A DNA stretch of 64,000 nucleotides from Promethearchaeota archaeon (GTDB lineage: Archaea; Asgardarchaeota; Lokiarchaeia; Sigyniarchaeales; SOKP01). This document shows positions 2,689-38,902 of the stretch, piece after piece. Numbering within the stretch: the stretch's first letter is position 1; every line of letters begins with the position of its first letter. The notes under the pieces were generated by a model. That model saw nothing but the letters and a program-made list of their open reading frames with translations, was not told where the DNA came from and did no database searches. The stretch is from NCBI GenBank assembly GCA_016839555.1, contig JAEOUA010000007.1:160001-224000 (forward strand), written 5' to 3'. Both the position numbers and the translations under genes were made by a program.

Positions 2689-3156
2689 ATGGTTGATAAT
2701 TTAGATGAATTAGATATAGAAATATTGAAAATTTTAAGCAAAGACTCCACAATATCTAATAGCAACATAGCGAATCAATTAGATAAACATCCCACCACCA
2801 TAGCTAACCATGTGACCGAGTTAAAAAAGAATGGGATTATAAAGGAGTTTTCAATTACCATAGATTATGAAAAACTGGGTTTTGATATAATTGCCATAAT
2901 TGAATTAACAATCTCTAAAGGGAAAATGTTAGAAGTTGAAAGAGACATTGCGAAAATATCTAATGTTTTCGCTGTGTATGATATAACAGGGCAGTATGAT
3001 GCGTTAGTCCTAACGAGATGTAAAAATCGAAAGGCATTAAGTGTGCTTGTAAAAAAAATTAATTCTTATAATAACGTAATTAGAACTAATACTCATATTA
3101 TCCTTAATGTGATTAAAGAAGGAACTAATTTTTTTGATTTAATAAATATGGAATAA
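2689..3156 (+). CDS. Lrp/AsnC family transcriptional regulator
   Basis: LDELDIEIL HTH start; YDITGQYD RAM domain; divergent from glnA. Confidence 0.9.
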   Translation: MVDNLDELDIEILKILSKDSTISNSNIANQLDKHPTTIANHVTELKKNGIIKEFSITIDYEKLGFDIIAIIELTISKGKMLEVERDIAKISNVFAVYDITGQYDALVLTRCKNRKALSVLVKKINSYNNVIRTNTHIILNVIKEGTNFFDLINME

Positions 3157-3308
3157 AAGTGCTTTATTTATTATTTATCAAAAATCTAAATTGAAAAATG
3201 ATTATATCACCCAAAAGATATAATTACCGAAATATTTAAATCTCTATTTATCTAAGTTATATTGAAAAAGAGAAATTTAATTAAAAATTTCATACGAGAA
3301 GAAATAAG

Positions 3309-4667
3309 ATGAATGAACATAAAGATGTTAAAAAAGAAACAGGAGTAAAGGATAAATTTCTATTCGGAATGCCAAGATTGGGCTCTTCTATTGTATTAGG
3401 AATCGAAGGGTGGGCTTTACTTACACTTTATACTTCCGGTTATGCCTTAGATCCATTTCGCACGGGGTTTGCTATCGCTATGGGATATCTTACTATTGCA
3501 GTCTCTCAGTTTCTACTTGGATGGCTAAGTGATGCCAAATATACAAAGTTGGGTCGAAGAAAACCTTATATCTTAATTTTTGCTCCGCTTTTAGGGCTTT
3601 CGATTATTTTTCTTTTATTACCTCAATTGGTACTACCAGATTTAGAAAATAAAAATGCACTTTTCTTTTGGTTGTTAATATGGGATATTATTTTCAGAGC
3701 CAGTTATGCGGTTACAACTCCTTATCAAGCTTGGATGGCAGAAGTCTTTCCGGTAAACGAGAGACCAAAAGTTTCACAAATTCAAAATACTTTTAACTAT
3801 ATTGGTAATGGAATAATGGCATTATTTTCGCTTTTAATTCTAACGAGTTTTATAGATGATTTAAGAATAAATGTAAATGCCCCGGTTCCGGTGATTTTTT
3901 TCATACCCCTTGTTATTTTCGGAGTTCTGACCATTGTATTGTTCTATTTGGTAGCTATTTTCCTTCCCAATGAGCCTAAATATGAAATAAAATCTAATAT
4001 GATAGACAATCTTAAAACCATTATAAAAAATAGAAATTTTATGCTGATTATTTTGATGGTGGGTATTGCTGGATTAGGATGGACAATGGGTACTACTACA
4101 ATGTTAAAATATACTGAAGATGCCCTGGCTCTTGGAGGATTTGATTACGTGATAGTGGCTCTTTGCTTATTGATATCGATATTTGTTTTTCTTTATATTT
4201 GGAGGCGGAATATTAATAAACATGGTAAAAAAAAGATGCTCTTATTTGTATTTCTCATAGCTGCAGCATTCTTTCCAATAACATTAATAGGCTTAATTCC
4301 AATGCCCTCCTACCTTATATTTGGAATAATATTTATAGTGGGAATCGGAGCTATATTAGCTGGCTGGTTCTTATTTCCCTATATTGTCTATGCAGATCTC
4401 GCCGAAGATGATCAAAAGAAGACTGGAGAGTTAAAAGCGGGAATTTATGCGGGATTTCCCTCTATCATTCTTAATATCTTTCAAGCTGCTAGTACTTTGC
4501 TTATTGGAGCAATTCTATCAATACCCATATATTATAGTCCTACCGCTTTTGTAGATCCTTATTCCATTGGTTTAGTATTATGGGGTCCACTAGCTTCGAT
4601 AGTCTTAATTATAGCATATTTCTACACAAAAAAATACATTACTTTAGATTTTGAATGGGAAAAATAA
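3309..4667 (+). CDS. MFS transporter (GPH/MFS_2 sugar-cation symporter-like)
   Basis: About 12 hydrophobic segments; GWLSD..TKLGRRKPYI motif; ADLAEDD...G...AGIY. Confidence 0.85.
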   Translation: MNEHKDVKKETGVKDKFLFGMPRLGSSIVLGIEGWALLTLYTSGYALDPFRTGFAIAMGYLTIAVSQFLLGWLSDAKYTKLGRRKPYILIFAPLLGLSIIFLLLPQLVLPDLENKNALFFWLLIWDIIFRASYAVTTPYQAWMAEVFPVNERPKVSQIQNTFNYIGNGIMALFSLLILTSFIDDLRINVNAPVPVIFFIPLVIFGVLTIVLFYLVAIFLPNEPKYEIKSNMIDNLKTIIKNRNFMLIILMVGIAGLGWTMGTTTMLKYTEDALALGGFDYVIVALCLLISIFVFLYIWRRNINKHGKKKMLLFVFLIAAAFFPITLIGLIPMPSYLIFGIIFIVGIGAILAGWFLFPYIVYADLAEDDQKKTGELKAGIYAGFPSIILNIFQAASTLLIGAILSIPIYYSPTAFVDPYSIGLVLWGPLASIVLIIAYFYTKKYITLDFEWEK

Positions 4668-4684
4668 TTTAAAATTTAATTATA

Positions 4685-4706
4685 TTTTTTTTTTTGAATT
4701 TTTTTT
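4685..4706 (+). terminator. Oligo-T tract, probable archaeal intrinsic terminator
   Basis: T11 then a further T-run, starting 18 nt after the MFS stop codon. Confidence 0.4.
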
Positions 4707-4808
4707 ATTTATAATTTTATATCAATATAAATAATGAAGACTTGGTTCAAATTTATTTTATTATTATTTTATTAAAAAGCAAGTTATAAGGAACAAATAG
4801 AAAAGTGC

Positions 4809-5585
4809 CTAATAGAACTTGGATTGATCTGAATCGAATAAACGTTGCAAGTAGCCAAAAACTAAGTCGAGCGATTTTTCCTCTAATGTAGAACAAGGAA
4901 TCAATTCTGCAGTGGAACCCATTTGCAAAAAAACATCAGAAATAAGCATCGATAATTCTCTTATTAATCCTTGTTCTCTCTCATTGGTAGAATCTTCTAA
5001 TGCCATAAAATCTTGGCTCCAATTAACAATCATTTCAATTTGATTTTCATCTAAAAGATCTGCTTTTGATAAGATGTTTATCTGTGAAATATTTTTGAAT
5101 CTGAATTGAACTGACGCAGCTAATAATAGAGTTGATATAAAACCGTTCGGACGAAGTACAAAATTAGCATCAAATAAAAATGAGACCGCTTTCTGGATGG
5201 GTTGAATTCCTAATGAATTTGCGATTAAAGGACCCGTTTCTCGAAAAGAGAAAAGTTCTAACTGACCTGTGGTGTCAACTAATACCCAATCAGGATTATA
5301 TTGGTCAATTTCATATTTTAAATCATCTATATATTGAATCATCAAATCTGAAGCCAATATGGTGGCTCCGTTAGGTCCAAGACCATACTTTTCCATAACA
5401 TCATCTAATACAATATAATCTCTTATATCTATATCGGGTATATAAGGCATATCTTTAACTCCAGGGTCCAGATTAATAATAATTGCCGAAGCTTCGGGAT
5501 TTCTATTTAAAATATACTCTTTTAAAGCCCCTGTCAGAGTTGTTTTACCTGAGCCAGCTGTGCCTATAATATAATTAAGTAAAAT
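4809..5585 (-). CDS. GPN-loop GTPase (start extended to a probable ATT codon)
   Basis: LGPNG and DTTGQLE lie in the listed ORF. The P-loop GTAGSGKT and NLDPG are in frame upstream of the listed ATG (5450). GAGGT sits 7 nt before ATT at 5585. Confidence 0.88.
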   Translation of the reverse strand: MLLNYIIGTAGSGKTTLTGALKEYILNRNPEASAIIINLDPGVKDMPYIPDIDIRDYIVLDDVMEKYGLGPNGATILASDLMIQYIDDLKYEIDQYNPDWVLVDTTGQLELFSFRETGPLIANSLGIQPIQKAVSFLFDANFVLRPNGFISTLLLAASVQFRFKNISQINILSKADLLDENQIEMIVNWSQDFMALEDSTNEREQGLIRELSMLISDVFLQMGSTAELIPCSTLEEKSLDLVFGYLQRLFDSDQSKFY

Positions 5586-5679
5586 TTCTATAACCTCTTT
5601 ATATTCTCATTTTAATTTAAATCTTGAATAAATAACTTAATAAATTAAAGAAATCCTTCAAACATAATATTTGTTTTAT

Positions 5680-6069
5680 TTAAGTAAATCTTTTTAATTT
5701 TGATAAATAATACACTGGTTTATTAAATTTCTTTTGAAAATATTCGATTTCTTCTTTAGATTGCTCTCCTATATAATTACCTTTATCCAGCACTAAAACC
5801 GCATCTTGAGAATGTAATTTTTTCATAGCAATTTTTTGAAGCTTATTCCATTCATTTTGAGAAAACTGCTTTTTATGTAAAAGACCATCTACAGAACAAA
5901 TTGATACTATTTTATTATAACTAATTTGGAGAATAGTTTCTATTTCATAAAAATATTCTTTCGCATTTGTAATTGATCCTACAAGAAAAATTCTCTCTTC
6001 TTTTATTTTAGAAAAATCATATCTCTCAAATTTCTTCAGAAAATTCTCATTTAGTCTTAATCTACTCAT
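5680..6069 (-). CDS. Hypothetical protein, DUF4406/nucleoside deoxyribosyltransferase-like fold
   Basis: IFLVGS ... DAVLVLD..NYIG..S..EIEY...KPVYYL pattern. Confidence 0.55.
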   Translation of the reverse strand: MSRLRLNENFLKKFERYDFSKIKEERIFLVGSITNAKEYFYEIETILQISYNKIVSICSVDGLLHKKQFSQNEWNKLQKIAMKKLHSQDAVLVLDKGNYIGEQSKEEIEYFQKKFNKPVYYLSKLKRFT

Positions 6070-6235
6070 AATTTCTTATAATACCATACTCTTTTAAATA
6101 TTTCATGAATTTTATTAAAGAAGGTGAGAAAAATTTCTTATTCACCTAATAAATTATAATAGATTAAAATTAATATAAGTGAAAAATAGATGATTAAAAA
6201 AAAAAACTAATAATATAATAAGAGAAAAAAAAATT

Positions 6236-9200
6236 TTAATTAAAAAATTCAGAAATATTTTCTCCGCATTTAGGACAATATTTTTTTGGTGATTCTAAAG
6301 CCTTACCACAGAAAGGACAATGAAATATAATTTTTTCTTCCTTCAATCCGCCTCTATCAATATATTTTTCAGAGTCTTCTGGATATCTACTCGCGAAATC
6401 TTCATCTACATATTCGGGTATAATTCTCTTCCTTCTAATAGCATAAATCACTACTAATATCCCAAAAATACCAGCAATTATTAGCAAGGCTACGATAATT
6501 GGTACCCAATTTGATTGTTCCTCACTTGGAATAAGTTGATTAAATAAATCATAGTTAAACGTAATTGTTGTTGCTATAATAAAGGGAGTCGTCATAGAGG
6601 TTCCCTCTTCATCTAATACATCAATATAGAGTATTCCTATATAATTATCAGGGAAGTAACCGGTAGATGTAGAAATTCTTTTAACTCCTTGTATTGATTC
6701 AAATAACATCGAATATGGAATACTAAAAGAGCCAGTATATTTTCCTAACTTAGAATTATATGAAAGACTATGCTCTTCAAATGAGGCAGGAGGAATTAAA
6801 ATTATTGTGCTATACCCCCCTTCTGGTTCTGAGATTGCTGCTATGAAAAGATTCACTGAAACCTCTACATTTGAATTATTATCATCATCTATAGTTTGAA
6901 TTTGAAAATTAATAATGTCTCCTTGATAGGCTTGTTGAACATAAATATAACCACCTGATGATGTATCGGAGAATTTTGTATATCCAGAAAAACCTATTCG
7001 AAAAAGTGAATTATCTAAATCAATATCTGGGGGTTCATTATTGATTTCAAAAGTTGCTCGTGGAGAATTTGGATTAGAATAATTATCATTAAAGGGGATT
7101 ACATAAAAAATTCCATAACCAGATGGCTCATTAGGTAAATTTATAGCTTTATTATAAATATTAATTAACGGTAAATTAGATAATAAATGAGTTTGATTAA
7201 TTGTTTTTTCAGAATTATGGAAACGATGTGAGTATAAAGAGAGATAAGCATTAAAATCTAAATATCCCGAGCTATTCATTTGAGCCTCTATAATAATGCT
7301 ATTTCCTTTATTAACACTTTCTTTACTAGTTTTAAGATTTAATATATTTGGAATAGCACTAGATTCATAATATAGAATTTTAGTGTTCTTAGTATATGTT
7401 TTGGAACCAAGTGTTAAATTAACTGAAATTTCATAGGGTTTAGTGGAAGGTGAGGGAATTATATAAGAATAATTGAATGCTATTCCGTCAATCGAAGAAG
7501 AAAGATTGATTGATTTATTGAATGAACTATTACTTATTCTTGCAGTTAAATTATTACTATCCAGAATAGAATTACTAATAAATGAATTAGATGTGGTGTT
7601 TTTTACATAGACAGAAATATTTAAACTCCCATTATTAACTCTCTCACCATTCAACTTGATATTTATTGAAATCTCATCTTTCCCAAAGAAGTAATCCATC
7701 AAATTGTTTAATAATAGCTCATGATTTTGTTTATAATCATTTTCCTCACTTGTATAATCATAATATAACCAGTTTAAATCTCCAAAGGCAACAAATTTAC
7801 CTTTATTGGAAGAAGTACCATTATATGCCACAGCTACGGATTTATTTTCCACTTCCGCGATACTTTCAGCAGCACCAGATACATTGAAAGTATTTCCATA
7901 TAACCATAAGGAGTGATTAACATCTTTAAATATAGAATGATTTTTCGGAATAGTATTTAATGCATATAATATTGTTCCAATCCCGATCCATTCTTCTGAG
8001 ATAATATTTTCTTCATTAATCATAGTATTTATTCCAAGTTCTGAAAAAAGAGTGTTTATATTATCCGAACATACATGTTGATATTGAGTACCCAAATAAA
8101 GAATGTCTCCACTATTATTGTAATATTCTACAAGATTTTCGATTTCCATCGGGCTATATGGTAGGATTGGGTTTTGTAAGACAATCAGGTCATACTGAGA
8201 TAACAATTCCTCAGTCAAAATATAGTTATCTGAGCTCTTATTATATCCAATTTGCCAATATTCCATTGAATAATCCATTGATATATTCAAATCTGCTAAA
8301 TCTGACATTGCCTCGTAAAATCCAATCTGAGGGAAGGATAATTCCGGGTTTAACCAGTCGTTAAGACCGTGATACGAATCAAATAAGATTTTTTGTTCCG
8401 GTAATCGAATATCTAAAGAAATATTAATATAATTAGCTATTACCCCATCTATTGTTATGCCAATAGAAAAATTCTGCACCCCTACGGTCGCATTATCTTT
8501 TATTTTAATAGCTAGTGTAGTAAAATTTATTCCTGCTCTTTGAAAAATAAAATAGTCATTTTCTAAATTAATCTCAATTCCAGAAAGATCAGTTGGTACC
8601 TCTATCCTTATGGTATTGTTCTTTCCAGAAATCACCGATAGGTTATATGTTTGAGAATCTCCTGGGAAATTAAGTAGATCGTAAGGTTTAAACGGCAAAA
8701 TATCAGGAAAAATCTTCGTAATATTGTTAATATCAGAGTGGGTTGAATTAATAATGTTTAAATATTCTAAGGATGCGGATACATTTATAAGCCCCGCGCC
8801 TGATTTAGGTAAATATGTTTCCTCAGATTTCGGAAGATGATATGCTCCTTCATAAAGCGCTATTCTCGCAGTTTCTGCGCTAATATTTGGATACGCATCT
8901 TTCAATATAGCAATTGCACCAGATACCATCGGACACGACATACTTGTTCCACTTAAGGGAATATAATTAGCAGAACCTTTGAAATCAAAAAAATCTCCAA
9001 GAAATTTCACTTCTTTTTCAAGCACAGAATTTGGAGCAGATGTGGAAATAATATTAAATCCAGGAGCAACTACATCGGGGTATCCAATGTAAGTTAAGGA
9101 TGGCCCCCAACTACTAAAATATGCAAGGCTATTATTAATATCTGTCGCACCAACACTAATAACATCAGGATGAGAGGCTGGCGTAGAACCAGTAAAATAT

Positions 9201-28742: not shown

Positions 28743-28834
28743 GTATTAAATTATTCTATTATATTACTTTTCATATGATATACAAAAATATTTTACTCTC
28801 TATTCTTATAAATTAATGTAATAACACATATTAG

Positions 28835-30568
28835 ATGAATCAAATGACCACACGTCTCGTAGAAGAAAATGAATTGCGGAAAAAAGTATGGAGAATCATA
28901 AATTTAATTCAAGCAAACCAATTATTTGTGCACTCAAAGAATTTAGAAATTCAAATCAATGATAAGGAAGGTAAAACCCAAAAAAGAAATCTACCGGAAA
29001 TATTAACTTTATGTGTATTAAATGCAATAATACCTAATTCTGCCATCTTATTAAAGGGAGGGCACGGTGGAGGGAAAACGACTTTGATCAAGTTGCTTGG
29101 TCGTATGTTTACGTCAAAATCTCTTAATCACATTGAGGAATCTATAGTCCGAGGTCATCCACAGATTACTGAGGAAAAGCTTGTGGGGACGCTTAAGTTA
29201 GGGAAATTAATGAAAGAAGGAAAAGAAATTGTAGTTTGGAAAAAATTCACGAAAAGTTTTTGGAAAATAATTGATGAAGTAAATAGATTAACACCCTATG
29301 CTCAAGATATTTTATTATCACTTCTCGCTGAAGGCACAGTAAAATTTTATGATTCTATTTTTACTATTAATAAATTCTCATTGTTCGCAACTATAAATCC
29401 TCACGATGTAGGAACTTTTGAACTTTCCAAACCTTTTTTAGATAGATTTGGTATTTCAGTACCTATATCTATGCCTAGTAGTCGGGATTTACAACTCATT
29501 TTAGCAGGAAAAGATGAGAAATATTCGGGCTATGATGAACTTATTCAAGTTCCTGGAATTTTAGTGATTGATGAATTAATGGAAATATGGTATTATGTCA
29601 ATAAAATTAAAATTGACCAAGAAGCGAATAATTATATTCATGCAATTGTTAGAGAATTTACCCTATGCGATCGCATTGATAAAGGTAACACTGAAGATCT
29701 AAAACCCAGTACAGGTTTATGTTCAGGATGTCATTTTAATACAACTCAAAATGTATGCAATAAAATAGATTCTATCCTAAGTGTAAGAGTGGCGAAAGAT
29801 CTATTACGATATGCAAAAGCTTTAGCGTGGCTATTAGGACTTGAAATAATTGATATTAATATTATAAATACCATTGCTCCTTATGTAATTGCCCATAGAG
29901 TTGAATATTCGCAACGAGAATTAGAAAAAGCGCCCTATTGGGGTAATAAATACGAGTTTTCAAAAAATTTATTATCAAATATTAAAAATAGATTTATGAA
30001 ACGAAAGCAATGTTATGAAATTGCTCAAAAATTTAGAGATGGTATTCAAAACAAAGAAGATATAACTGAATTGAAGAATTTTCTAAAAAATGATTTAATC
30101 GTAAAATATGATTTATATCCTTTTATCCAAGCTATTAAAGGGAAAAAATATGCAGAATTGGCGCAGGAAATACAAGATGCCTCTAAAAAAGGACATATTT
30201 CTCAATTAGCAGAAATAAGAAATCAATTATTAGCAAATTTAGAATTCCCAAATCGTGCGGATTTAATTAATTGGTGCAATCGTGAACTCTATCGACAAAC
30301 TGTTACGGATTATGTGTTTAAATATTATTACTGGAAAGAAGTATGGGCTGATATAGCATCGGAATTTCCTAATTTAGATGAACCTTTAAAAGTAGCTCTT
30401 AGCCAGAGACAGACAAAACAAATACGTTCGGAAGACCTTTTGATAGAAATAAATGTAACAGGCACTAAGGATGAGAGTCTTGTTAATATGCAGATATCTG
30501 GTGGGTCTGATGCATTGAAATTAAAAAAAATCTTAAATAATTCAGAATATTTAAAAAAAGATGATTAA
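28835..30568 (+). CDS. MoxR-like AAA+ ATPase
   Basis: GGHGGGKT, IIDEVNR, FATINP, FLDRF, SVR; Cys-rich insert. Confidence 0.85.
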   Translation: MNQMTTRLVEENELRKKVWRIINLIQANQLFVHSKNLEIQINDKEGKTQKRNLPEILTLCVLNAIIPNSAILLKGGHGGGKTTLIKLLGRMFTSKSLNHIEESIVRGHPQITEEKLVGTLKLGKLMKEGKEIVVWKKFTKSFWKIIDEVNRLTPYAQDILLSLLAEGTVKFYDSIFTINKFSLFATINPHDVGTFELSKPFLDRFGISVPISMPSSRDLQLILAGKDEKYSGYDELIQVPGILVIDELMEIWYYVNKIKIDQEANNYIHAIVREFTLCDRIDKGNTEDLKPSTGLCSGCHFNTTQNVCNKIDSILSVRVAKDLLRYAKALAWLLGLEIIDINIINTIAPYVIAHRVEYSQRELEKAPYWGNKYEFSKNLLSNIKNRFMKRKQCYEIAQKFRDGIQNKEDITELKNFLKNDLIVKYDLYPFIQAIKGKKYAELAQEIQDASKKGHISQLAEIRNQLLANLEFPNRADLINWCNRELYRQTVTDYVFKYYYWKEVWADIASEFPNLDEPLKVALSQRQTKQIRSEDLLIEINVTGTKDESLVNMQISGGSDALKLKKILNNSEYLKKDD

Positions 30569-30620
30569 AACAAAATATTAAATTACATAAAAGAAAGAAA
30601 AATATAAAATTACATAAAAA

Positions 30621-32324
30621 GTGACAACAAATAGCCAAAAAGATTATATTAAAGAACAAGAAGGTAAATTAATTCAATTAGCAAAAAAAGGATGGAATAA
30701 TAGTTTAAGAGAATTTTATTATCCTCCTCTTAATGAACCTAATTTTATTTTCGATTATATCCGTCAAGAAGGATTTTATATAGATCCTCATAAAAAGTGG
30801 CAAATTACAATGAATCTAGTAAACACCCCACTTTTTTCAGACGATGAAGATTATATAAAATATTATCATTCTATCACTTTGCATGAAATCTCTCATTATC
30901 AAATAATTCCCTATGATGGATATATTAATGCTAAGCTCTTAAAAGCAGCTATGAGATATGTAAATCAATACTTTGCTCCAATCATAGTTAATATTTTTGC
31001 AGATCTTGTAATTGATCGGATGCTTTTTCTCAAGCATCCTGATCTTGTATCTTGGGAGCTCAAAGAGACTTATAAGCATATTAAAAATAAGAATACATTA
31101 TCTGAATTTTCAAACCTTCTTTTTTCGCTTTATGAAAAAGTGTTAGATATTACAATTTTTGAAGAAAAGCCCTCAAATATTGATAATTATTTAGTATCTC
31201 AAATTTCTAAAACAATTTTAAAGGATTTCTATGATGAAACTCAGTGGGAGCAAAAGGTACAAAAGATTGCATATTATTTAATTAACATGATTAAAGACAC
31301 ATTCACTCTTATAGGAATTGGCGTTAAATGTAAGGAAGGAACTTCAAAGAGAAAAGCCCCTGGAAAAGGAGATCATTATATCAAAATACCAGATGACATT
31401 TTAGAGCTCATGGATAATCCTTTAGAAAATAAAAATACTGATAAATTAGAGAAAGATAATGATGATACATTGAGACAAAAATCGGAAGAATTTGCAAAAG
31501 ATACGGATTATTCAGAATTTGGAGCCCCTGCAGGACAAGCGGGAATATTAATAGATGCAAACCCTTTAGCTGCATGGTATAGGGGAAAAGCAAAAGATTT
31601 AATTCAAATCAAAATATTTGAAAAGAAACCTGGAGGTGAAGTTCCCATTTATCCAGAAGTATGGAGAATTGGAGATCCCATAGAAGAATTGGACATCGTA
31701 CAAACTTTAATTAGTAGTCCTATAGTTGTTCCTAATATTACTACTAGAAAATGGAAATATCAATTAGGAGAAGGGCATTTGGAAGAACAACAAATCCCAG
31801 ATCTTTTAATAGTACTTGATTCGAGCGGTTCTATGGGATGGAATTATTTAGCAGCTTCAGAAGATTCACGAGGTCCCTACCATACTGCCTTAATAGCTGC
31901 ATTTGCTTCCTTACACTTTGCTGCCAAAAAAGGCGTGAAATTTAGTATAATTAATTTTTCTGATAAAGCTGATGTGTGTCAATGGACTTATGATTATGAA
32001 ACTGCAGAAAAAATATTACTCCGCTATCAAGGAGGGGGTACACAATTGCCAATTAAAGCAATTAAACAACAATGTGAAAAAGCTGAAAAAAAGACACTCG
32101 TATTTATTATCACTGACTTTGGAATCTATAATTGGGGCGGTGCGAAAAAAATAATGATGGAATTGAGTGAAAAAGGGCACAAAATTGTAGGGTTCTTTAT
32201 AGGATCCAATAAAATTCCTAAAAGGAAGTTTAGTGAATTATTATCTAAGGTTACTTTTTATCCAATTAAAAATTGGCAAGATTTAATAAATCTAGTTATA
32301 AAAGAAATAAAAAAATATTATTAG
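30621..32324 (+). CDS. vWA-domain protein with N-terminal HExxH metallopeptidase-like domain
   Basis: HEISH ... NIFAD; MIDAS motif LDSSGSM, GGT, ITD. Confidence 0.85.
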   Translation: MTTNSQKDYIKEQEGKLIQLAKKGWNNSLREFYYPPLNEPNFIFDYIRQEGFYIDPHKKWQITMNLVNTPLFSDDEDYIKYYHSITLHEISHYQIIPYDGYINAKLLKAAMRYVNQYFAPIIVNIFADLVIDRMLFLKHPDLVSWELKETYKHIKNKNTLSEFSNLLFSLYEKVLDITIFEEKPSNIDNYLVSQISKTILKDFYDETQWEQKVQKIAYYLINMIKDTFTLIGIGVKCKEGTSKRKAPGKGDHYIKIPDDILELMDNPLENKNTDKLEKDNDDTLRQKSEEFAKDTDYSEFGAPAGQAGILIDANPLAAWYRGKAKDLIQIKIFEKKPGGEVPIYPEVWRIGDPIEELDIVQTLISSPIVVPNITTRKWKYQLGEGHLEEQQIPDLLIVLDSSGSMGWNYLAASEDSRGPYHTALIAAFASLHFAAKKGVKFSIINFSDKADVCQWTYDYETAEKILLRYQGGGTQLPIKAIKQQCEKAEKKTLVFIITDFGIYNWGGAKKIMMELSEKGHKIVGFFIGSNKIPKRKFSELLSKVTFYPIKNWQDLINLVIKEIKKYY

Positions 32325-32402
32325 ATACCTTTTTTGCTAATCTATATCAAGTTTATCAGTTGTTTTTTACCTTTCTTCAAAAATAGATTTAAGAAAAAAG
32401 AG

Positions 32403-32560
32403 TAGAAAATAGGTGTCCTCACCTTACAACCATAACTTAAAGGGAGAAGTAAAGAAGATTTCTACTTTATATACATAAAGTAGATCACCAAAAGACAAAA
32501 ATCCAGGGATTAAAGTGGGAAAAACCTATCTCCTTAAACAGTCCTATTATGAACTGTTAA
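32403..32560 (-). ncRNA. Candidate structured non-coding RNA (~160 nt)
   Basis: TATA box about 25 nt upstream; 5' hairpin; long end-to-end stem with G-U pairs; internal 10-bp perfect hairpin; U-rich 3' flank; no ORF. Confidence 0.45.
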
Positions 32561-32579
32561 TAAATAGTAGTTTTTAAAC

Positions 32580-32593
32580 TATTTAAAAGTTTT
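32580..32593 (-). promoter_or_regulatory. TATA box (TTTAAATA) with purine-rich BRE-like upstream run
   Basis: Minus strand reads AAAACTTTTAAATA, centred about 26 nt before the 5' hairpin of the candidate ncRNA. Confidence 0.35.
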
Positions 32594-32896
32594 GATTTTA
32601 TATACACAAATTTTAAATAGAAAGATCTAATTCCCTTTCTAATTAAAATGGCAAATATGATTATTAAGTGAATTAATTTAAGACTCAACTCTTCGTTTTA
32701 AACTCTTAAAAAATTGTTTTCAAAAACGAATTAATTTTTTTGTACCAAGAAAGAATTATAAAACCGTATGTTTATTTAGAAGATTACAATAGTCTTGACA
32801 TAAATGAAATCAAAAAGTGTAACAAAAAGATAATTTTTTAATAAGCCATAAGATTATTGCAATACAAATAAATTTTCTATTTTTCAGTGAATTTGA

Positions 32897-33547
32897 ATGA
32901 ATGAAAAAGATGTGATAAATAAATTACAAGAGAGTATAATTGATGGTTCTATTGAAGATTCTATTAAGTATGTAGAACTTGCTATTGATATGAATATGGA
33001 TGCGACAATTATCTTAAAGGAAGCAATTATTAAAGGAGCAGATGAGGTTGGAAAAATGTATGAAAATGAGAAATACTTTCTTGCAGATTTAATCCTCGTC
33101 GGAGATGCAATAAATGAATGTATGAATCTTATAAAACCACTTCTTAAAGCAAAAAATGAAGAATCATTAGGCACGATAATGATTGGTACGCCTGAGGGTG
33201 ATATTCATAGCATTGGTAAAAGTTTAATAATATCATTATTACAAGGTCAGGGCTTTAATGTAATTGACTTAGGTGTAGACATTCCTCCTTCTAAGTTTGT
33301 AGAAGAAGCAAAAAATATTAACCCAGATATTATTGCTATGAGTAGTTTAATGACAGTAACAATCTCAAAAATGAGAGAAACAGTTATGCAAATTAAGAAT
33401 GCAGGTATTAATTCTAAAATAATATTAGGAGGAGGCATTGTATCCGAAGAAACTTGTAAAAGCATAGGGGCCGATGCCTGGGCAAAAGACGGATGGGAGG
33501 GAATAAGAATTATAAAAAATATGTTATATACAAATGGAGATGATTAA
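32897..33547 (+). CDS. Corrinoid (B12-binding) protein, MtaC/MtbC-like
   Basis: Helical cap domain, then GDIHSIGK (DxHxxG), DLGVD, SSLMT, LGGG. Confidence 0.92.
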   Translation: MNEKDVINKLQESIIDGSIEDSIKYVELAIDMNMDATIILKEAIIKGADEVGKMYENEKYFLADLILVGDAINECMNLIKPLLKAKNEESLGTIMIGTPEGDIHSIGKSLIISLLQGQGFNVIDLGVDIPPSKFVEEAKNINPDIIAMSSLMTVTISKMRETVMQIKNAGINSKIILGGGIVSEETCKSIGADAWAKDGWEGIRIIKNMLYTNGDD

Positions 33548-34637
33548 AATGCCACATAATTGGAATGCATCTGTTAGGAGAGTTATGAAGGCAATATCTG
33601 GATCTAAGCGAATTGATAAGGTTCCTTATCTTCCCTTAGCCGGTGAAGATACACTTGCTCGTATCTCAGGCAAAACAGTGAGAGAATTATTAGATTCACC
33701 TGAACTCTATGCGAAAGCAGCAATAGATTCCTATGAATTTCTTCAATCAGATTTTGTATCCATACCAACAGCATATACAGGACCTGCTGAGGCATTAGCT
33801 TTTGCCGAGTTTAATAGTAAAGCAGATGCAATAGAGTGGTATGATTATAAAATTTTTATGTTACAACAGGGTGAAGTTTGTAAAACTAAAAGTGATATTG
33901 AGAATTTAATAATACCCGATCATAGTAAGTCTAAACTCTGGGTTAACCTATTTGAAGCAGCAAAAATTATTCAACAAGAAATTAACTATCCTCAAAATTG
34001 CATATTAGGTTTATGGGGGGTCGTTCAAGAATTAAGAGGTATTCAGGCTTATAGAGATATGAGAAGAGATCCTGAGTTATTATTGAAATTATGTGAAAAA
34101 ATATATGAGTCTTTATTAGATTTATACTATTATTCGGTTGATATATTAGGAAAACCCAATTTTATAACAATCGTAGGATATGCATTTAATAAGCATATGA
34201 TGAGTTTCGAGGATGCAATGAAATATGAAGGAGATTTTATAAAACGACTGCAAAAGGAAATTAAGATTCCTTTAATATTACATAATTGTGGCACTACTCC
34301 TTATTTTGAAGAAATATGTAATGAAATTGATTTTATAGGTGTAAATGGTTCTCATCCATTGGACATTCAATATTGGATAGAATTTCAGAAAAAATTTCCA
34401 AAGGTTGCTATATTAGGTGCTAATATTGATGTAAGTCGCGAACTATTTTATGGTACACCTCAAGATGTAGAAGAAAAGGTAAAAGAAAATATCTTAAATT
34501 TAGCTCCTAATGGGAGATATATTTGTTCACCAGTATGTAGTATACCTTGGGGTGTCTCATTGCTAAATATGATGGCAATTCCTAGAGGAATAAATAAATA
34601 CGGAAAAGAGCCATTTAAACTTAAAAAAAATGAGTAA
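33534..34637 (+). CDS. Uroporphyrinogen decarboxylase-family methyltransferase (MtaA/CmuA-like)
   Basis: ILHNCG and SPVC zinc-ligand motifs; GANID...L.YGTPQDV; coupled to the corrinoid gene (start may be ATG 33549). Confidence 0.82.
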   Translation: MEMIKMPHNWNASVRRVMKAISGSKRIDKVPYLPLAGEDTLARISGKTVRELLDSPELYAKAAIDSYEFLQSDFVSIPTAYTGPAEALAFAEFNSKADAIEWYDYKIFMLQQGEVCKTKSDIENLIIPDHSKSKLWVNLFEAAKIIQQEINYPQNCILGLWGVVQELRGIQAYRDMRRDPELLLKLCEKIYESLLDLYYYSVDILGKPNFITIVGYAFNKHMMSFEDAMKYEGDFIKRLQKEIKIPLILHNCGTTPYFEEICNEIDFIGVNGSHPLDIQYWIEFQKKFPKVAILGANIDVSRELFYGTPQDVEEKVKENILNLAPNGRYICSPVCSIPWGVSLLNMMAIPRGINKYGKEPFKLKKNE

Positions 34638-34727
34638 TAATAATTATTTTTTGCGTAAAAATCCTAACTAAAAAAATTTAACTCAATCTTCAATTGAAAT
34701 GACATATATGGTTAATAATAAATTAGT

Positions 34728-35003
34728 TTAATACTCATATCTTTCATTTAAATTTTTAAGAAATTGTTTAATAAAATATCGTTGGCTCTCGCAATAATTC
34801 CACTTCTCTTTATCATTTAAATTATCGCAATTTTCTATAATATTTTGTATATCTTCAATTATTTTAAAAATTTCTTTGGCTTGAGTTTTGGATTTGGTAC
34901 TTTCAATGCAAGTTAAAGCGAATTCTTCATCTAAGAGCTTTTGAATATCTATAGAACTATTATCATTTGGAATTTGTGATTTAGATTTTGTTTGAGGATA
35001 CAT
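34728..35003 (-). CDS. Hypothetical protein
   Basis: Isolated 91-aa ORF with ATG start. Confidence 0.5.
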   Translation of the reverse strand: MYPQTKSKSQIPNDNSSIDIQKLLDEEFALTCIESTKSKTQAKEIFKIIEDIQNIIENCDNLNDKEKWNYCESQRYFIKQFLKNLNERYEY

Positions 35004-35240
35004 TTTGAAATTTTTTTCTACACTTGAATGTTATATATACTTTAAGAATATCCAGAATTATATGAGTATATTACAACTAATATTTTTGTAGATATGTAAT
35101 ATCTGGATATATTATTTCTTTATCAAGATCTCCCATAAAGCATTGACAAGATAAAAAAAAGTTTTATGTTGAGCTAAATAATTATATGTAATAATAATTT
35201 CTAAAATAACAACCATCATAAATATAAAATAGTATAATGA

Positions 35241-36008
35241 GTGATAATAATGGGCGAACATAGTATTGTAGGAGTTTCCGCTTCAAAAGTTGTTGCTTTA
35301 ATTGGGGCATTATTTGCGTTTTCGGCAGGACTAAATTTAATGTTTACACCCGATATTGTTTCAATACTCTGTGGAATTGTGATTTTTGTATTAAGTATTA
35401 TTCTTATAATTGCTATAAATGTGTTTGGGGTAAATATTAGAAGAAATATTCCTTATGAATGGTGGTTATTGTTATTAATTGCTTTAGGATTGTTTATTTT
35501 TTATATTATCCTCTATTATCTTCCCTTTATTTCAGTTTTAGATTCAGAAGCAGAGGAGGGGATATTTGATAGGATTCTTAATATATTTTCTTTGTCAGAA
35601 GCGGGTTCAGAAGTACCCATTTTGTTTGATGCGAGAGTAATATTATTATTAAGTATCCTATTGATAATTCTCGGTTGTGTACTTAAAGTATTAGGTGAAA
35701 GAAATACAAAAATATATACATCTTCTAAAATTGTGGTAAGTTTTGGAGCTTGTTGGGCAATCATAGAAGCAATTTTATTAATACTATCCTCTGATATTGT
35801 TAGGATTATAATAGGGATTATCGCTGTAGTATTAGCTATATTGTTGATCTTGAGCATACCTGCAAGTATAAAACTTCCCTATTCTTGGTGGTTTATCTTA
35901 ATTATTGGATTCATTTATTTTGTTCTTTTAGCTCCTTACTTCTCTTATACAATAATTAGCGGTGCCCTAGTATTAGTAGGATTTGTCCTAATTTTAATGG
36001 CATATTAA
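35241..36008 (+). CDS. Membrane protein built from an internal duplication
   Basis: About 8 TM segments; SASKVV...IPYEWW repeated as TSSKIV...LPYSWW. Confidence 0.75.
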   Translation: MIIMGEHSIVGVSASKVVALIGALFAFSAGLNLMFTPDIVSILCGIVIFVLSIILIIAINVFGVNIRRNIPYEWWLLLLIALGLFIFYIILYYLPFISVLDSEAEEGIFDRILNIFSLSEAGSEVPILFDARVILLLSILLIILGCVLKVLGERNTKIYTSSKIVVSFGACWAIIEAILLILSSDIVRIIIGIIAVVLAILLILSIPASIKLPYSWWFILIIGFIYFVLLAPYFSYTIISGALVLVGFVLILMAY

Positions 36009-36147
36009 TTTCTAAAAATTATTTTTTTTCTATTTTTCATTTTTTAAAAGATTCTATCTTACAGAATGAGATTAAATTAGCTTCAAATATAAAAAACTAG
36101 TTTTAAAACTGAAGCTTTTGAAGAAGAAGATCTTTCTAAAAGAAGTT

Positions 36148-37050
36148 TTATGCCTCTGGCAATAAAATTTTATTTATTTCAATCCAGTTTTCCTTTAAAT
36201 TTGGTTCTAAGTTATGTTTTTGCTTTATAGTCGAAGAAATTGATCTACAGATTCTTTTTAATTCAAGAGATTGCAAATAATTAATATTTGGAGCTATAAC
36301 TGAAATCATAAACTGGGTTTGTTTAGAGCGTGTTGATTCATCAATATAAGCGTCAAAATAAATATATGTGTTCATATTTATGTAATCTATTTTCAAAAGG
36401 ACATCTTCTGCATGAGTAATTTGGCTTTGTCCATATATAGGAATCATGGCCTGAAAGAGATGATTTCCTAACTTATCAATTTTAAAGGAATGGATGTCAA
36501 AGGAATTGATTTCACTCTTAGGGTAGCTTTTTATCAATTTAGGTCCATATAAATCATCCCATTTCATTATAAACACTATGATATCACTTGTTTTTGGTTT
36601 TTCTTTAGAAATTCTTTCTATTTCCCTATCTTCTTGAGAAATTTCTTTAATCTTTTGTTCTAATTTATTTTCGTTAGCTTTACGGAATAGCTTTCCTTTA
36701 ATAGTTGCGAGTACATCTTTTTCATTGATTGGTTTTGTAATATAATCATCTGCTCCCAAGATTTTACCTAATCTAATCTCTTTTTGGGAAGATAATCCTG
36801 AAAGAAATATAAAAGGAATATGTTGATAGAAAGGATTTGCCATAACTATTTTTAATAACTCGTATCCATTAATTTGAGGCATTTTTATATCAGAAATTAT
36901 TAAATCAAAGGGTATATTTTCATTAAGAAGCTCTAAGGCTTTTTTACCATTTATAGTTGTTTTAACTTTATAACCTTTAGACTCTAATAAAGCTTTAATA
37001 TATGATAAAAAATCTTTATCATCATCAACAATTAATATCTGAGATTTCAC
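36148..37050 (-). CDS. Response regulator: receiver domain fused to a longin/uDENN-like C-terminal domain
   Basis: ILIVDDD, IISDIKMP, FLSG, YITKP (intact REC). The C-terminal domain starts IIVFIMKWDDLYGPKLIKSYP. Confidence 0.85.
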   Translation of the reverse strand: MKSQILIVDDDKDFLSYIKALLESKGYKVKTTINGKKALELLNENIPFDLIISDIKMPQINGYELLKIVMANPFYQHIPFIFLSGLSSQKEIRLGKILGADDYITKPINEKDVLATIKGKLFRKANENKLEQKIKEISQEDREIERISKEKPKTSDIIVFIMKWDDLYGPKLIKSYPKSEINSFDIHSFKIDKLGNHLFQAMIPIYGQSQITHAEDVLLKIDYINMNTYIYFDAYIDESTRSKQTQFMISVIAPNINYLQSLELKRICRSISSTIKQKHNLEPNLKENWIEINKILLPEA

Positions 37051-37261
37051 GATTTAATTACAATGGCTTTGATTTTCATATATTTTGACAAATAATTATA
37101 TAGTCTTGTTCATATAAAAATATTATTAATTTCTAAAAAGATATTATTAACTTTAAGATTAGAAAATGGAAAAAAAGGTTCTTAATTCCTAAAAAAACAA
37201 AAAAATATAATTTATAAAGACTATTTGCCTTAAAATTCTCACTATTTTATTATATTTTAAA

Positions 37262-37414
37262 AATTAAATCGGAGTTTTTTCATAACTTTTATAAATTTTG
37301 CGATTTCATAGAATTTTTTATCATAATACAAGAGATAGGGGCTTTTTGCGATGGTGTAATGAAACAAGAGAGCTGTTTGAACCCAATTGGGCCAATTAAA
37401 TCGGAGTTTTTTCA
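37262..37414. repeat. 21-bp direct repeat pair (AATTAAATCGGAGTTTTTTCA) at 37262-37282 and 37394-37414
   Basis: Exact copies 111 bp apart; the second copy contains the last codons and stop of the GTPase gene. Confidence 0.85.
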
Positions 37415-37932
37415 AAATTGGTATATATGGTGGTTTTAAATAATTCATATTCATTTTTTTCTTGTAATATTTCTCTGATTCTATTTATCAATTCATCGAT
37501 AAGTTCATCTGTGATATCTGGACGCATTTTCTTGAGCTTTGGGTCAAATTTATGTAAAAAAATTGAATAATCAAAATCATGCTTATGATTTCCAACTTTG
37601 TTTGTCACCTTTTTTAAATAATCAAGTGCCTTCTCATACCTCTCAACATCTTGGACATCGATCACATAAATAAGTTTATTACAACCTTTAAAATATTCTG
37701 GAAAATTGACCAGATGCTTATCCCGATATGCCTTTTGGCCTCCAAAATCCCAAATATTAAATTGAGTGTTCTGAAACTCCATATTGACTATTTGATGATT
37801 CTTAGTGGGGCTTAATTTACAATATGACAAAATATTTTGGTCACCCCGTAAACTTAACACTATGGAAGTCTTCCCCGCATTATCTAATCCCATTAATATG
37901 ATTTTTCGTTTTAAATTCTCTTCCATATTCAC
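37396..37932 (-). CDS. Small GTPase, Arf/Rag-like
   Basis: G1 GLDNAGKT, G2 PT, G3 WDFGGQ, G4 HKFD. Confidence 0.92.
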   Translation of the reverse strand: MNMEENLKRKIILMGLDNAGKTSIVLSLRGDQNILSYCKLSPTKNHQIVNMEFQNTQFNIWDFGGQKAYRDKHLVNFPEYFKGCNKLIYVIDVQDVERYEKALDYLKKVTNKVGNHKHDFDYSIFLHKFDPKLKKMRPDITDELIDELINRIREILQEKNEYELFKTTIYTNFEKTPI

Positions 37933-38283
37933 AGATTTCCTTTGTATATGCTGTTACTGATAATAAATATAATAAAACTTTAGATTACAATATTTAAACT
38001 ATTTCAAGTTATTTAAACATGATCTCTAAAATTTATAAAATAAATTGAGTAGTAATTTCTAAATGATTCTTTTGATATACTAAATATTCATCCATGATTG
38101 AGAGCTTTAAAATAAAAAAAAATCCGGTCATTAAATTATTTTAATATGTTTAATATTAATATTGTTGTAAGATTTTAAATAATTAATATTAAATTTTTAT
38201 TGTTTAGAATATTCTAATTGATCTATGCTTAATAACTTTTATTATCTCTTACAGATTATTTTTGTTAATCTATCGACAGACCG

Positions 38284-38299
38284 TCATATTTAAATATGA
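38284..38299. promoter_or_regulatory. Perfect 16-bp palindrome TCATATTTAAATATGA overlapping a TATA box
   Basis: Self-complementary; contains TTTAAATA; lies about 55 nt upstream of the Lrp gene. Confidence 0.4.
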
Positions 38300-38352
38300 T
38301 GATATCATAATATTAAAATAATCCTCGTAAAAAAAATTTGTGAAAATAAAAA

Positions 38353-38853
38353 ATGATAACTAGTAGTGATATAAGTATCGATAATATAGATAGGAAGATA
38401 ATAAGCCTACTTCAGAAAGATCCAAGCATCACTCATACCGAAATTGCCAAAGAAGTGAAACGGAGTCAACCTACTATTGGTTTAAGAATTAAAAAACTTG
38501 AAAAAGCAGGAATTATGAATTTTCAAGCGGGTTTAAATTTAAAAGTTGCTGATGTCCTTATTGCGAGAGTTGATTTGCAAACTAATAATCCCGAAAAAAT
38601 TTTAAATGAAATTAAAAATTGTCCCTATATTATAAACGGATTTCAATTAAGCGGGACCTATAATCTTAGCTTGCTCATAGCTAATTCAGCTTTAAAACAT
38701 TTAGATATCATAATTAATGAACATTTTAGAAACGATCCTGATGTTCTGAAAATACATATGGAAATTGTAACTAATATTATAAATGACTTCGTATTACCGA
38801 TGAATTTAAATACTAAAAAATGTAAATGTGACGAGAAATTCGAATCTCATTAA
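38353..38853 (+). CDS. Lrp/AsnC family transcriptional regulator
   Basis: IDNIDRKIISLLQ...SQPTIGLRIKKLE HTH; LSGTYNL. Confidence 0.88.
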   Translation: MITSSDISIDNIDRKIISLLQKDPSITHTEIAKEVKRSQPTIGLRIKKLEKAGIMNFQAGLNLKVADVLIARVDLQTNNPEKILNEIKNCPYIINGFQLSGTYNLSLLIANSALKHLDIIINEHFRNDPDVLKIHMEIVTNIINDFVLPMNLNTKKCKCDEKFESH

Positions 38854-38902
38854 CTTTTTTTATTTAGTTCTAATTTTTACTATTATTTAATAAGAAAAAA
38901 GC

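Follow-up and report, generated by a model that had tools for sequence, protein, structure and literature searches.

Can a histidine kinase act, through a longin-fold regulator, on a small GTPase of the Rag/Arf type? The question is raised by two neighboring genes in a 64,000-nucleotide stretch of a Promethearchaeota archaeon genome (GenBank assembly GCA_016839555.1, contig JAEOUA010000007.1, positions 160,001 to 224,000), hereafter called the window. The window has a G+C content of about 29%, and the closest public proteins to the locus are labeled Promethearchaeota or Lokiarchaeota. An initial annotation, made from the DNA letters, had described a receiver domain fused to a longin-like domain, encoded beside a small GTPase gene, and had proposed that the two belong to a hybrid circuit running from a kinase through the longin regulator to the GTPase. 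Both open reading frames (ORFs) were recovered at the same positions and on the same strand, with the same gap of 345 bp between them and the GTPase gene upstream.

36148..37050, minus strand: receiver-longin gene (P0001), 300 amino acids (aa), GTG start, from the ORF call
37396..37932, minus strand: Rag/Arf-like small GTPase gene (P0002), 178 aa, from the ORF call

The hybrid circuit reading is supported by the fold, the motifs, the conserved genomic context, and a model of the complex. The locus holds a genuine and complete representative of a class that is published yet uncharacterized. We regard the chances as evenly balanced that the receiver-longin protein is a phosphorylation-controlled longin regulator, probably a GTPase-activating protein (GAP), of the neighboring Rag/Arf-like GTPase.

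The nature of the C-terminal domain was examined by structure prediction and structural comparison.

36151..36585, minus strand: longin domain of the FLCN/SMCR8/C9orf72/NPRL2 type, residues 156 to 300, from AlphaFold2 and structural matches

The AlphaFold2 model of this domain, built from a 102-sequence alignment, has a predicted local distance difference test score (pLDDT) of 90 and a predicted template modeling score (pTM) of 0.86, and its topology (beta-beta-alpha-beta-beta-beta-alpha-alpha) is that of a longin. With an aligner independent of Foldseek, the best structural match was FLCN (6nzd_H; Z 12.3, root mean square deviation 2.8 over 137 residues), followed by a Lokiarchaeal Roadblock-Longin protein, matched through its longin domain (8yqg_B; Z 11.5), C9orf72-SMCR8 (7o2w_A; Z 11.2), and FNIP2 (Z 10.4). 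Further matches were a chain of GATOR1 (8fw5_C) and a chain of yeast SEA (8adl_S), complexes that contain NPRL2/NPRL3 and Npr2/Npr3. The longins of TRAPP, Mon1-Ccz1, and DENND1 also appeared, at Z 8 to 10; generic longins and roadblocks ranked below the FLCN-group chains. Foldseek agreed on the families (GATOR1 NPRL2/3, FNIP2, Lst4, and FLCN), longin chains filled the top 20 rows of both lists, and a search of the ESM Atlas led to clusters named SMCR8, FLCN, and C9orf72, plus an Asgard cluster of Arf/Ras GTPase-longin fusions. The longin fold expected by the initial annotation, which had suggested the Foldseek comparison, was thus upheld, with the FLCN/SMCR8/C9orf72/NPRL2 group as the nearest structures.

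An exhaustive search for the domain collected 136 representative clusters at E ≤ 1e-3, about half of which are receiver-longin proteins of ~295 aa. Other members are hybrid kinases (P0007, with the order REC-PAS-HisKA-HATPase-REC-domain, and P0008, kinase-REC-domain), a Ras-family GTPase fused to the same longin domain (P0045), a longin domain joined to TPR repeats (P0129), and a protein with a weak match to Pfam Folliculin (P0133). Judged by these relatives, the C-terminal domain is a genuine family and no chance motif. A Pfam scan gave no match for residues 150 to 300 of P0001, and the same scan of 102 domain sequences yielded scattered weak matches (two to Folliculin and one to Afi1); by sequence profile, the domain falls outside the Folliculin, NPR2, and C9orf72-like families. 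A search of PDB sequences with a Folliculin-positive member returned no match even at E 10. Because PDB sequence searches were empty, kinship to FLCN, NPRL2, and C9orf72 is read from fold and motifs. No second longin gene was found in the locus.

Two elements of this domain bear on its possible catalytic role.

36541..36561, minus strand: WDDLYGP motif, W164 to P170, in the beta1-beta2 loop, from family conservation and C9orf72 spacing
36328..36330, minus strand: R241, candidate arginine finger in the beta4-beta5 loop, from the family alignment and models

As the initial annotation had noted, the domain opens with a strand followed by WDDLYGP-K, which was located at residues 157 to 171 (IIVFIMK-WDDLYGP-K). 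Within the family, W164 is conserved in 98% of members, D165 in 78%, G169 in 96%, and P170 in 93%; F232 is nearly invariant, and D233 and D237 are strongly conserved. R241 is Arg in 76 of 99 family members. The FLCN finger stands in a similar D-x3-R context. The spacing of W164-D165-x3-G169-P170 is identical to that of W33-D34 and G38-P39 in human C9orf72, the WD of which is reported to be essential (PMC12290439). The same 2025 survey found the GP motif restricted to C9orf72, SMCR8, FLCN, NPRL2, and one Asgard longin class and reported that it adjoins the catalytic arginine in GAP-type longins (PMC12290439).

The N-terminal part of the protein comprises a receiver (REC) domain and a linker.

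36700..37038, minus strand: REC (CheY-like receiver) domain, residues 5 to 117, Pfam PF00072
36889-36891, minus strand: phospho-acceptor D54, inside REC
36586..36699, minus strand: charged linker, rich in K and E, residues 118 to 155

Residues 5 to 117 match Pfam Response_reg at E 2e-25 (89.5 bits versus a cut-off of 30.2). The acidic pocket residues D9, D10, and D11, together with D54, S84, and K106-P107, are all present and are invariant in the window's clade; among 68 full-length relatives, conservation is 90% or higher at D10, D54, and K106, in agreement with the intact phospho-acceptor domain that had been claimed. The charged linker likewise follows the REC domain as described earlier. 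In the full-length AlphaFold2 model (pLDDT 89, pTM 0.86), the REC domain has the (beta-alpha)5 fold of five strand-helix units, and its helix alpha5 is prolonged into a helix of about 30 residues (110 to 139), after which a flexible stretch (pLDDT ~70 at residues 141 to 150) leads to the longin domain.

The upstream gene encodes a GTPase with G1 GLDNAGKT, G3 DFGGQ (within WDFGGQ, which includes Q66), and G4 HKFD (residues 127 to 130), consistent with the Arf-like G1 and Rag-like HKxD G4 noted in the initial annotation. The protein clears the curated threshold of Pfam Gtr1_RagA (6.6e-25, 88.3 bits, cut-off 22) as well as that of Pfam Arf (2.5e-22, 79.6 bits, cut-off 22.3). Its nearest solved chains belong to two Lokiarchaeal GTP-binding proteins, 8yl2_A (4e-24) and then the Rag-like LokiRagM (8zla/9m28, 1.5e-20), with Arf6, Arl3, and RagC as the next matches. 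The Rag-type C-terminal roadblock domain is absent, and the 178-aa protein ends just past G5, likewise in all relatives. Arf-type traits are also lacking: the N terminus, MNMEENLKRK, has no Gly2, and G4 is HKFD rather than NKxD. Truncation of the GTPase was considered, given its end right after G5 and its overlap with a 65-aa ORF, and was rejected, as all close relatives stop at FEKTPI; because they end there with equal length, the GTPase is whole. The closest paralogue of this GTPase is encoded in the same genome at C5:31430-31987 and shares 8 bp with a 150-aa ORF of roadblock- or longin-like appearance; two genes beyond that ORF lies a gene for a 325-aa protein with a strand-x-GP opening (FDQIEGPRIF). 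This region, C5:28757-31987, may be a second GTPase-longin module of the genome.

Next, the conservation of the gene pair was assessed. The three closest homologues of the receiver-longin protein (84 to 63% identity) have the same GTPase upstream; this says little, because the entire neighborhood is syntenic, and 151 genomes of the phylum were therefore searched. The family was present in 33 of them, including 21 of the 25 genomes of the window's own family and all 7 of one other family. Forty receiver-longin loci were sorted with flanks of 5 to 6 kb, as follows.

15 of 40 loci: GTPase, then MASE3-PAS-HisKA-HATPase_c kinase, then receiver-longin, on one strand with short gaps
6 of 40 loci: GTPase, then receiver-longin, without an intervening kinase (the window itself, its three close relatives, one genome of the same genus, and one more)
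2 of 40 loci: receiver-longin, then GTPase
1 of 40 loci: receiver-longin, then GTPase, then kinase
1 of 40 loci: kinase, then REC, then receiver-longin, then Ras-family GTPase
2 of 40 loci: GTPase convergent on receiver-longin, one with a kinase upstream
9 of 40 loci: kinase adjacent, GTPase not seen (four end at a contig edge)
4 of 40 loci: neither GTPase nor kinase (two on short contigs)

A small GTPase is adjacent, or separated only by a kinase, in 27 of the 40 loci and in at least five arrangements, a count in which related genomes are nonindependent samples. For comparison, the 35 GTPase ORFs in the 3.74 Mb of the window's own genome give a chance of ~0.075 per 8 kb. With flanks of 1.5 kb, the link to a GTPase had looked weak (5 of 30 loci); the 5- to 6-kb flanks revealed the intervening kinase. 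The link recurs across gene orders, GTPase subfamilies, and several well-supported clades of the tree, so that the pairing pointed out in the initial annotation is kept beyond close synteny. The window's clade (its own protein, P0004 to P0006, and L036; support 99/92) uniformly has the GTPase followed by receiver-longin, and the three-gene cassette is found in several clades, one of them early-branching. The window GTPase is up to 51% identical to cassette GTPases, versus 43% to its best paralogue in the same genome.

Two loci illustrate the range of this linkage. In a same-genus genome (G135), locus L036 is syntenic with window positions 28800-38900; the flanking genes are 70 to 75% identical, whereas the GTPase is 56% and the receiver-longin protein 42% identical. 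The pair has stayed together while evolving much faster than its neighbors. L036 also has an extra 99-aa longin fragment downstream (4165-4464). In L037 (genome G144, 2936-7542), a PAS kinase, a 126-aa stand-alone receiver, the receiver-longin protein, and a Ras-family GTPase are encoded in that order; the GTPase matches Pfam Ras at 3.7e-32, a longin regulator here being paired with a different GTPase family.

The initial annotation had postulated input from a histidine kinase, and most relatives encode such a predicted input within the cassette, with the MASE3-PAS kinase between the two genes in 15 of 40 loci. In the window's clade, no kinase gene lies between the pair. A decayed kinase in the 345-bp gap was considered and rejected, since a search with the cassette-kinase profile in all frames detected no kinase remnant there. 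The cassette spans several clades, one of which branches early, so the kinase gene was probably lost from the locus in the window's clade. The genome's sole MASE3 protein is encoded on another contig (C5:189823-191337; 504 aa, MASE3-HisKA-HATPase_c, without PAS) and is the best match in this genome to the cassette kinases; its gene neighborhood contains no GTPase or receiver-longin gene. By its similarity to the cassette kinases, it is probably the cognate kinase of the window's receiver-longin protein.

Modeling of a complex with the GTPase, a check that the initial annotation had called for, was performed with the longin domain in two copies, together with the GTPase, GTP, and Mg, alongside three controls with unrelated proteins. 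The complex passed these controls, with an interaction prediction score from aligned errors (ipSAE) of 0.81 (0.82, 0.81, and 0.79 in the individual runs) versus 0.08 for the best control. Of 80 solved complexes, 58 attain that mark, as do 2 of 110 mismatched pairs, a calibration that holds only approximately here because custom alignments and a ligand were used, unlike in the calibration set. The runs had at least 91% of contacts in common, and partner pLDDT was at least 80. On the longin side, the predicted interface comprises residues 164 to 170 (the WD-GP loop), helix alpha1, and residues 241 to 243; on the GTPase side, it comprises residues 17 and 18 (P-loop), 39 to 50 (switch I and interswitch), and 66 to 69 (Q66, switch II). 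In both longin copies, R241 contacts the GTPase. The model supports binding between the receiver-longin protein and the GTPase.

In the favored reading, the 300-aa protein is a response regulator with a longin output domain of the type that serves as catalytic platform in eukaryotic FLCN-FNIP, GATOR1, and C9orf72-SMCR8. The working mechanism that we infer would begin with phosphorylation of D54 by a histidine kinase, namely, the cassette MASE3-PAS kinase in relatives and probably the unlinked MASE3 kinase in this genome; the identity of the kinase, like cellular binding, dimerization, GAP chemistry, and the direction in which regulation runs, is a conditional part of this scheme. Once D54 is phosphorylated, the receiver, with its long alpha5 helix, would hold or pair the longin domains differently. 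Phosphorylation-dependent receiver pairing is common among response regulators. The longin dimer would then dock on the face of the GTPase formed by the P-loop and switches I and II, where its WD-x3-GP loop and R241 may reach the nucleotide and so speed GTP hydrolysis, as expected of a GAP.

Several points weigh against a kinase-controlled longin GAP. The kinase gene is absent from the window's locus, the GTPase and receiver-longin genes probably have separate promoters, judging from a conserved block described below, and a second receiver-longin gene of the same genome, on contig C7, has no GTPase neighbor. R241 is Arg in just 77% of members, and its equivalence to FLCN R164, SMCR8 R147, or the NPRL2 finger is putative. 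Pfam Folliculin misses P0001 and is weak in just 2 of 102 family members (best E 0.0016), and the family profile found no match among PDB sequences even at E 10. Eukaryotic GAP longins work as heterodimers with DENN or other C-terminal domains; P0001 ends with its longin domain at residue 300, and a C-terminal DENN or NPRL2-specific domain is absent. Most platforms built from longins and roadblocks are guanine nucleotide exchange factors (GEFs) or scaffolds. Besides its approximate calibration, the pass of the complex model may reflect likeness to known structures, because FLCN-Rag(C), GATOR1-Rag(A), and C9orf72-SMCR8-Arf1 complexes have been solved.

The strongest alternative, which we consider unlikely, keeps the binding but not the catalysis: the receiver-longin protein would bind the GTPase as a phosphorylation-controlled GEF, scaffold, or effector platform. 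Such a role would liken it to most longin/roadblock dimers (TRAPP, Mon1-Ccz1, DENN, and Ragulator), and RomR-RomX with MglA in Myxococcus is comparable; genomic linkage and the complex model speak for binding and not for catalysis, the GEF longins of TRAPP, Mon1-Ccz1, and DENND1 match the domain as well (Z 8 to 10), and R241 is missing in about one-quarter of members. However, the closest structures are GAP-type longins, the WD-x3-GP arrangement has been reported in GAP longins only, and the model brings the GP loop, along with R241, to the P-loop/Q66 region.

Less probable still is that the two genes are mere neighbors, with the longin protein acting on another of the ~35 GTPases or on a non-GTPase target (membrane or SNARE-like). 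The probably separate promoters are compatible with this view, as are the C7 paralogue and a few other loci without an adjoining GTPase, the pairing of receiver-longin genes with differing GTPase subfamilies, including the Ras type, at related loci, and the general placement of Asgard GTPase genes outside longin operons (Tran et al., PMC10933270). Against it stand the retention of the GTPase in 27 of 40 loci through several arrangements and clades, the tracking of the cassette by the GTPase subfamily, and a complex model that passes when unrelated-protein controls stay at or below 0.08. It is most improbable that the receiver is out of phosphotransfer and serves as a plain dimerization module of a constitutive longin protein. 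Although the window and its clade have no kinase gene at this locus, an intact acidic pocket, D54, S84, and K106 are kept throughout clade and family, and the genome encodes a MASE3 homologue of the cassette kinases at another site.

A phosphorylation-controlled longin regulator of the neighboring GTPase can be compared with several known systems. Fusions of NPRL2-like longins to two-component domains in Asgard archaea were cataloged by Liu et al. (bioRxiv 10.1101/2020.10.19.343400; Nature 2021), as the initial annotation had suspected; it was also right that no functional description of such fusions was to be found in the literature searched. As in those proteins, a receiver, or a kinase plus receiver, is joined to a longin of the NPRL2/FLCN type, and those authors likewise surmised that a eukaryote-like longin module takes its input from two-component systems. 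Liu et al. name no partner GTPase and report mostly unconserved neighborhoods, whereas here a fixed Rag/Arf-like GTPase neighbor and a MASE3-PAS kinase recur across many loci. The GP-motif Asgard longins (Traffic 2025, PMC12290439) share the GP, likewise in the beta1-beta2 loop, and have a conserved Arg close to it, and GAP activity on ArfR or Rag GTPases has been suggested for them, the partner being left open (PMC12290439). Unlike the protein studied here, they are stand-alone or FLCN-like and mostly from Heimdallarchaeia; no receiver fusion is mentioned in that paper, where neither "receiver" nor "response regulator" occurs.

Among eukaryotic longin GAP complexes, FLCN-FNIP2 (acting on RagC/D), NPRL2-NPRL3 of GATOR1 (RagA/B), and C9orf72-SMCR8 (Arf) share the longin fold and give the best Z-scores. 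The resemblance extends to the C9orf72-type WD-x3-GP loop, a loop Arg as in FLCN, SMCR8, and NPRL2, a client of the Rag/Arf type, and the predicted docking on the nucleotide face. Unlike them, the receiver-longin protein has no DENN or other C-terminal domain, and its sequence similarity lies below Pfam thresholds; it probably pairs with itself, each chain carrying both motifs, rather than forming an obligate heterodimer, and its proposed input is His-Asp phosphotransfer, in contrast to their lysosomal scaffolds.

Prokaryotic parallels also exist. In the Myxococcus polarity module MglA/MglB/RomR-RomX with Frz input, a GTPase is likewise under a GAP of the roadblock/longin superfamily and a receiver protein, with phosphorelay input; there, however, receiver and GAP are two proteins, RomR and MglB, the latter with the roadblock fold, and they act on an MglA-type GTPase. 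The actinobacterial conservon CvnA-D, reportedly described by Komatsu et al. in 2006, resembles the present cassette in joining a sensor kinase of the membrane to a roadblock-superfamily protein and a Ras-like GTPase; it differs in being bacterial, in lacking a receiver, in having a roadblock in place of a GP-motif longin, and in using another GTPase family. In the cultured Lokiarchaeon MK-D1, GTPase genes generally lie outside operons with longin genes (Tran et al., PMC10933270). No paper describing a cassette of GTPase, MASE3 kinase, and receiver-longin was found in the literature searched, nor was anything found there on LokiRag, or on MASE3 in connection with archaea and GTPases.

A more specific proposal, tentative and somewhat doubtful in our view, is that of a phosphorylation-gated homodimeric longin GAP that combines a C9orf72-type WD-GP loop and an FLCN/SMCR8-type finger in one chain, is driven by a membrane MASE3-PAS sensor kinase, and acts on a Rag/Arf-like GTPase. 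If true, this protein would be a living, simpler relative of the FLCN, GATOR1, and C9orf72-SMCR8 switches, and signaling from a sensor through a longin GAP to a Rag-like GTPase would predate eukaryotes. Asgard genomes encode dozens of small GTPases and longin/roadblock proteins, and gene order has offered little guide to which regulator belongs with which GTPase (PMC10933270). What this locus and its relatives contribute is a specific GTPase partner and a type of kinase, naming a trio composed of a MASE3-PAS kinase, a receiver-longin protein, and a Rag/Arf-like GTPase of ~180 aa. These proteins are small and likely soluble, except for the membrane part of the kinase, and therefore make it directly testable whether Asgard longins are GAPs, whether they are switched by His-Asp phosphotransfer, and whether a two-component precursor underlies the Rag/longin logic of eukaryotic nutrient signaling.

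The region between the two genes was also inspected.

37051..37395, minus strand: intergenic spacer, 345 bp, with oligo-T runs past the GTPase gene and a copy of the GTPase 3' end
37115..37124, minus strand: AATATTTTTA block, candidate TATA element ~65 nucleotides (nt) upstream of the receiver-longin start

The block AATATTTTTA does not vary among four orthologous loci, although their proteins share just 63 to 84% identity. Archaeal TATA boxes are A/T-rich. By analogy, AATATTTTTA is probably the archaeal TATA-type promoter element of the receiver-longin gene itself. Because that gene has its own conserved TATA-like block, cotranscription is unlikely in the window, and the caution voiced on this point in the initial annotation was well placed. 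An Rfam scan of 35900-38400 found no family, and a scan for sigma-70 promoters and terminators is uninformative for an archaeon.

The spacer also contains an exact 19-nt direct repeat, AAAAAACTCCGATTTAATT, at window positions 37262-37280 and 37394-37412 on the minus strand, within ~35 nt at 86% identity. By this repeat, the last codons and the stop of the GTPase gene recur 132 bp downstream, in a segment that is unique in the genome. Since the gap in the 84%-identical relative is ~141 bp shorter, a small local duplication or insertion is suggested. The 65-aa ORF that overlaps the GTPase 3' end (37257-37454, minus strand, in another frame) closes in the repeat (KKLRFNW ... KKLRFNF) and is probably a by-product of the duplication, not a gene.

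The second receiver-longin gene of the genome lies at C7:308012-308979 (L070:12012-12980, plus strand) and has a complete, in-frame REC domain. The stretch between its upstream stop and mid-REC contains no ATG, GTG, or TTG, which points to an unusual start codon or else to an error in the sequence. Beside it are two genes for longin-TPR proteins of ~680 to 690 aa (C7:303317-305398 and C7:305901-307922). In the window, positions 32897-34637 on the plus strand encode a B12-binding corrinoid protein (216 aa) and then a URO-D-type methyltransferase (367 aa), in ORFs that overlap by 14 bp. This pair looks like a methyl-transfer module and is also found near the receiver-longin gene in locus L001.

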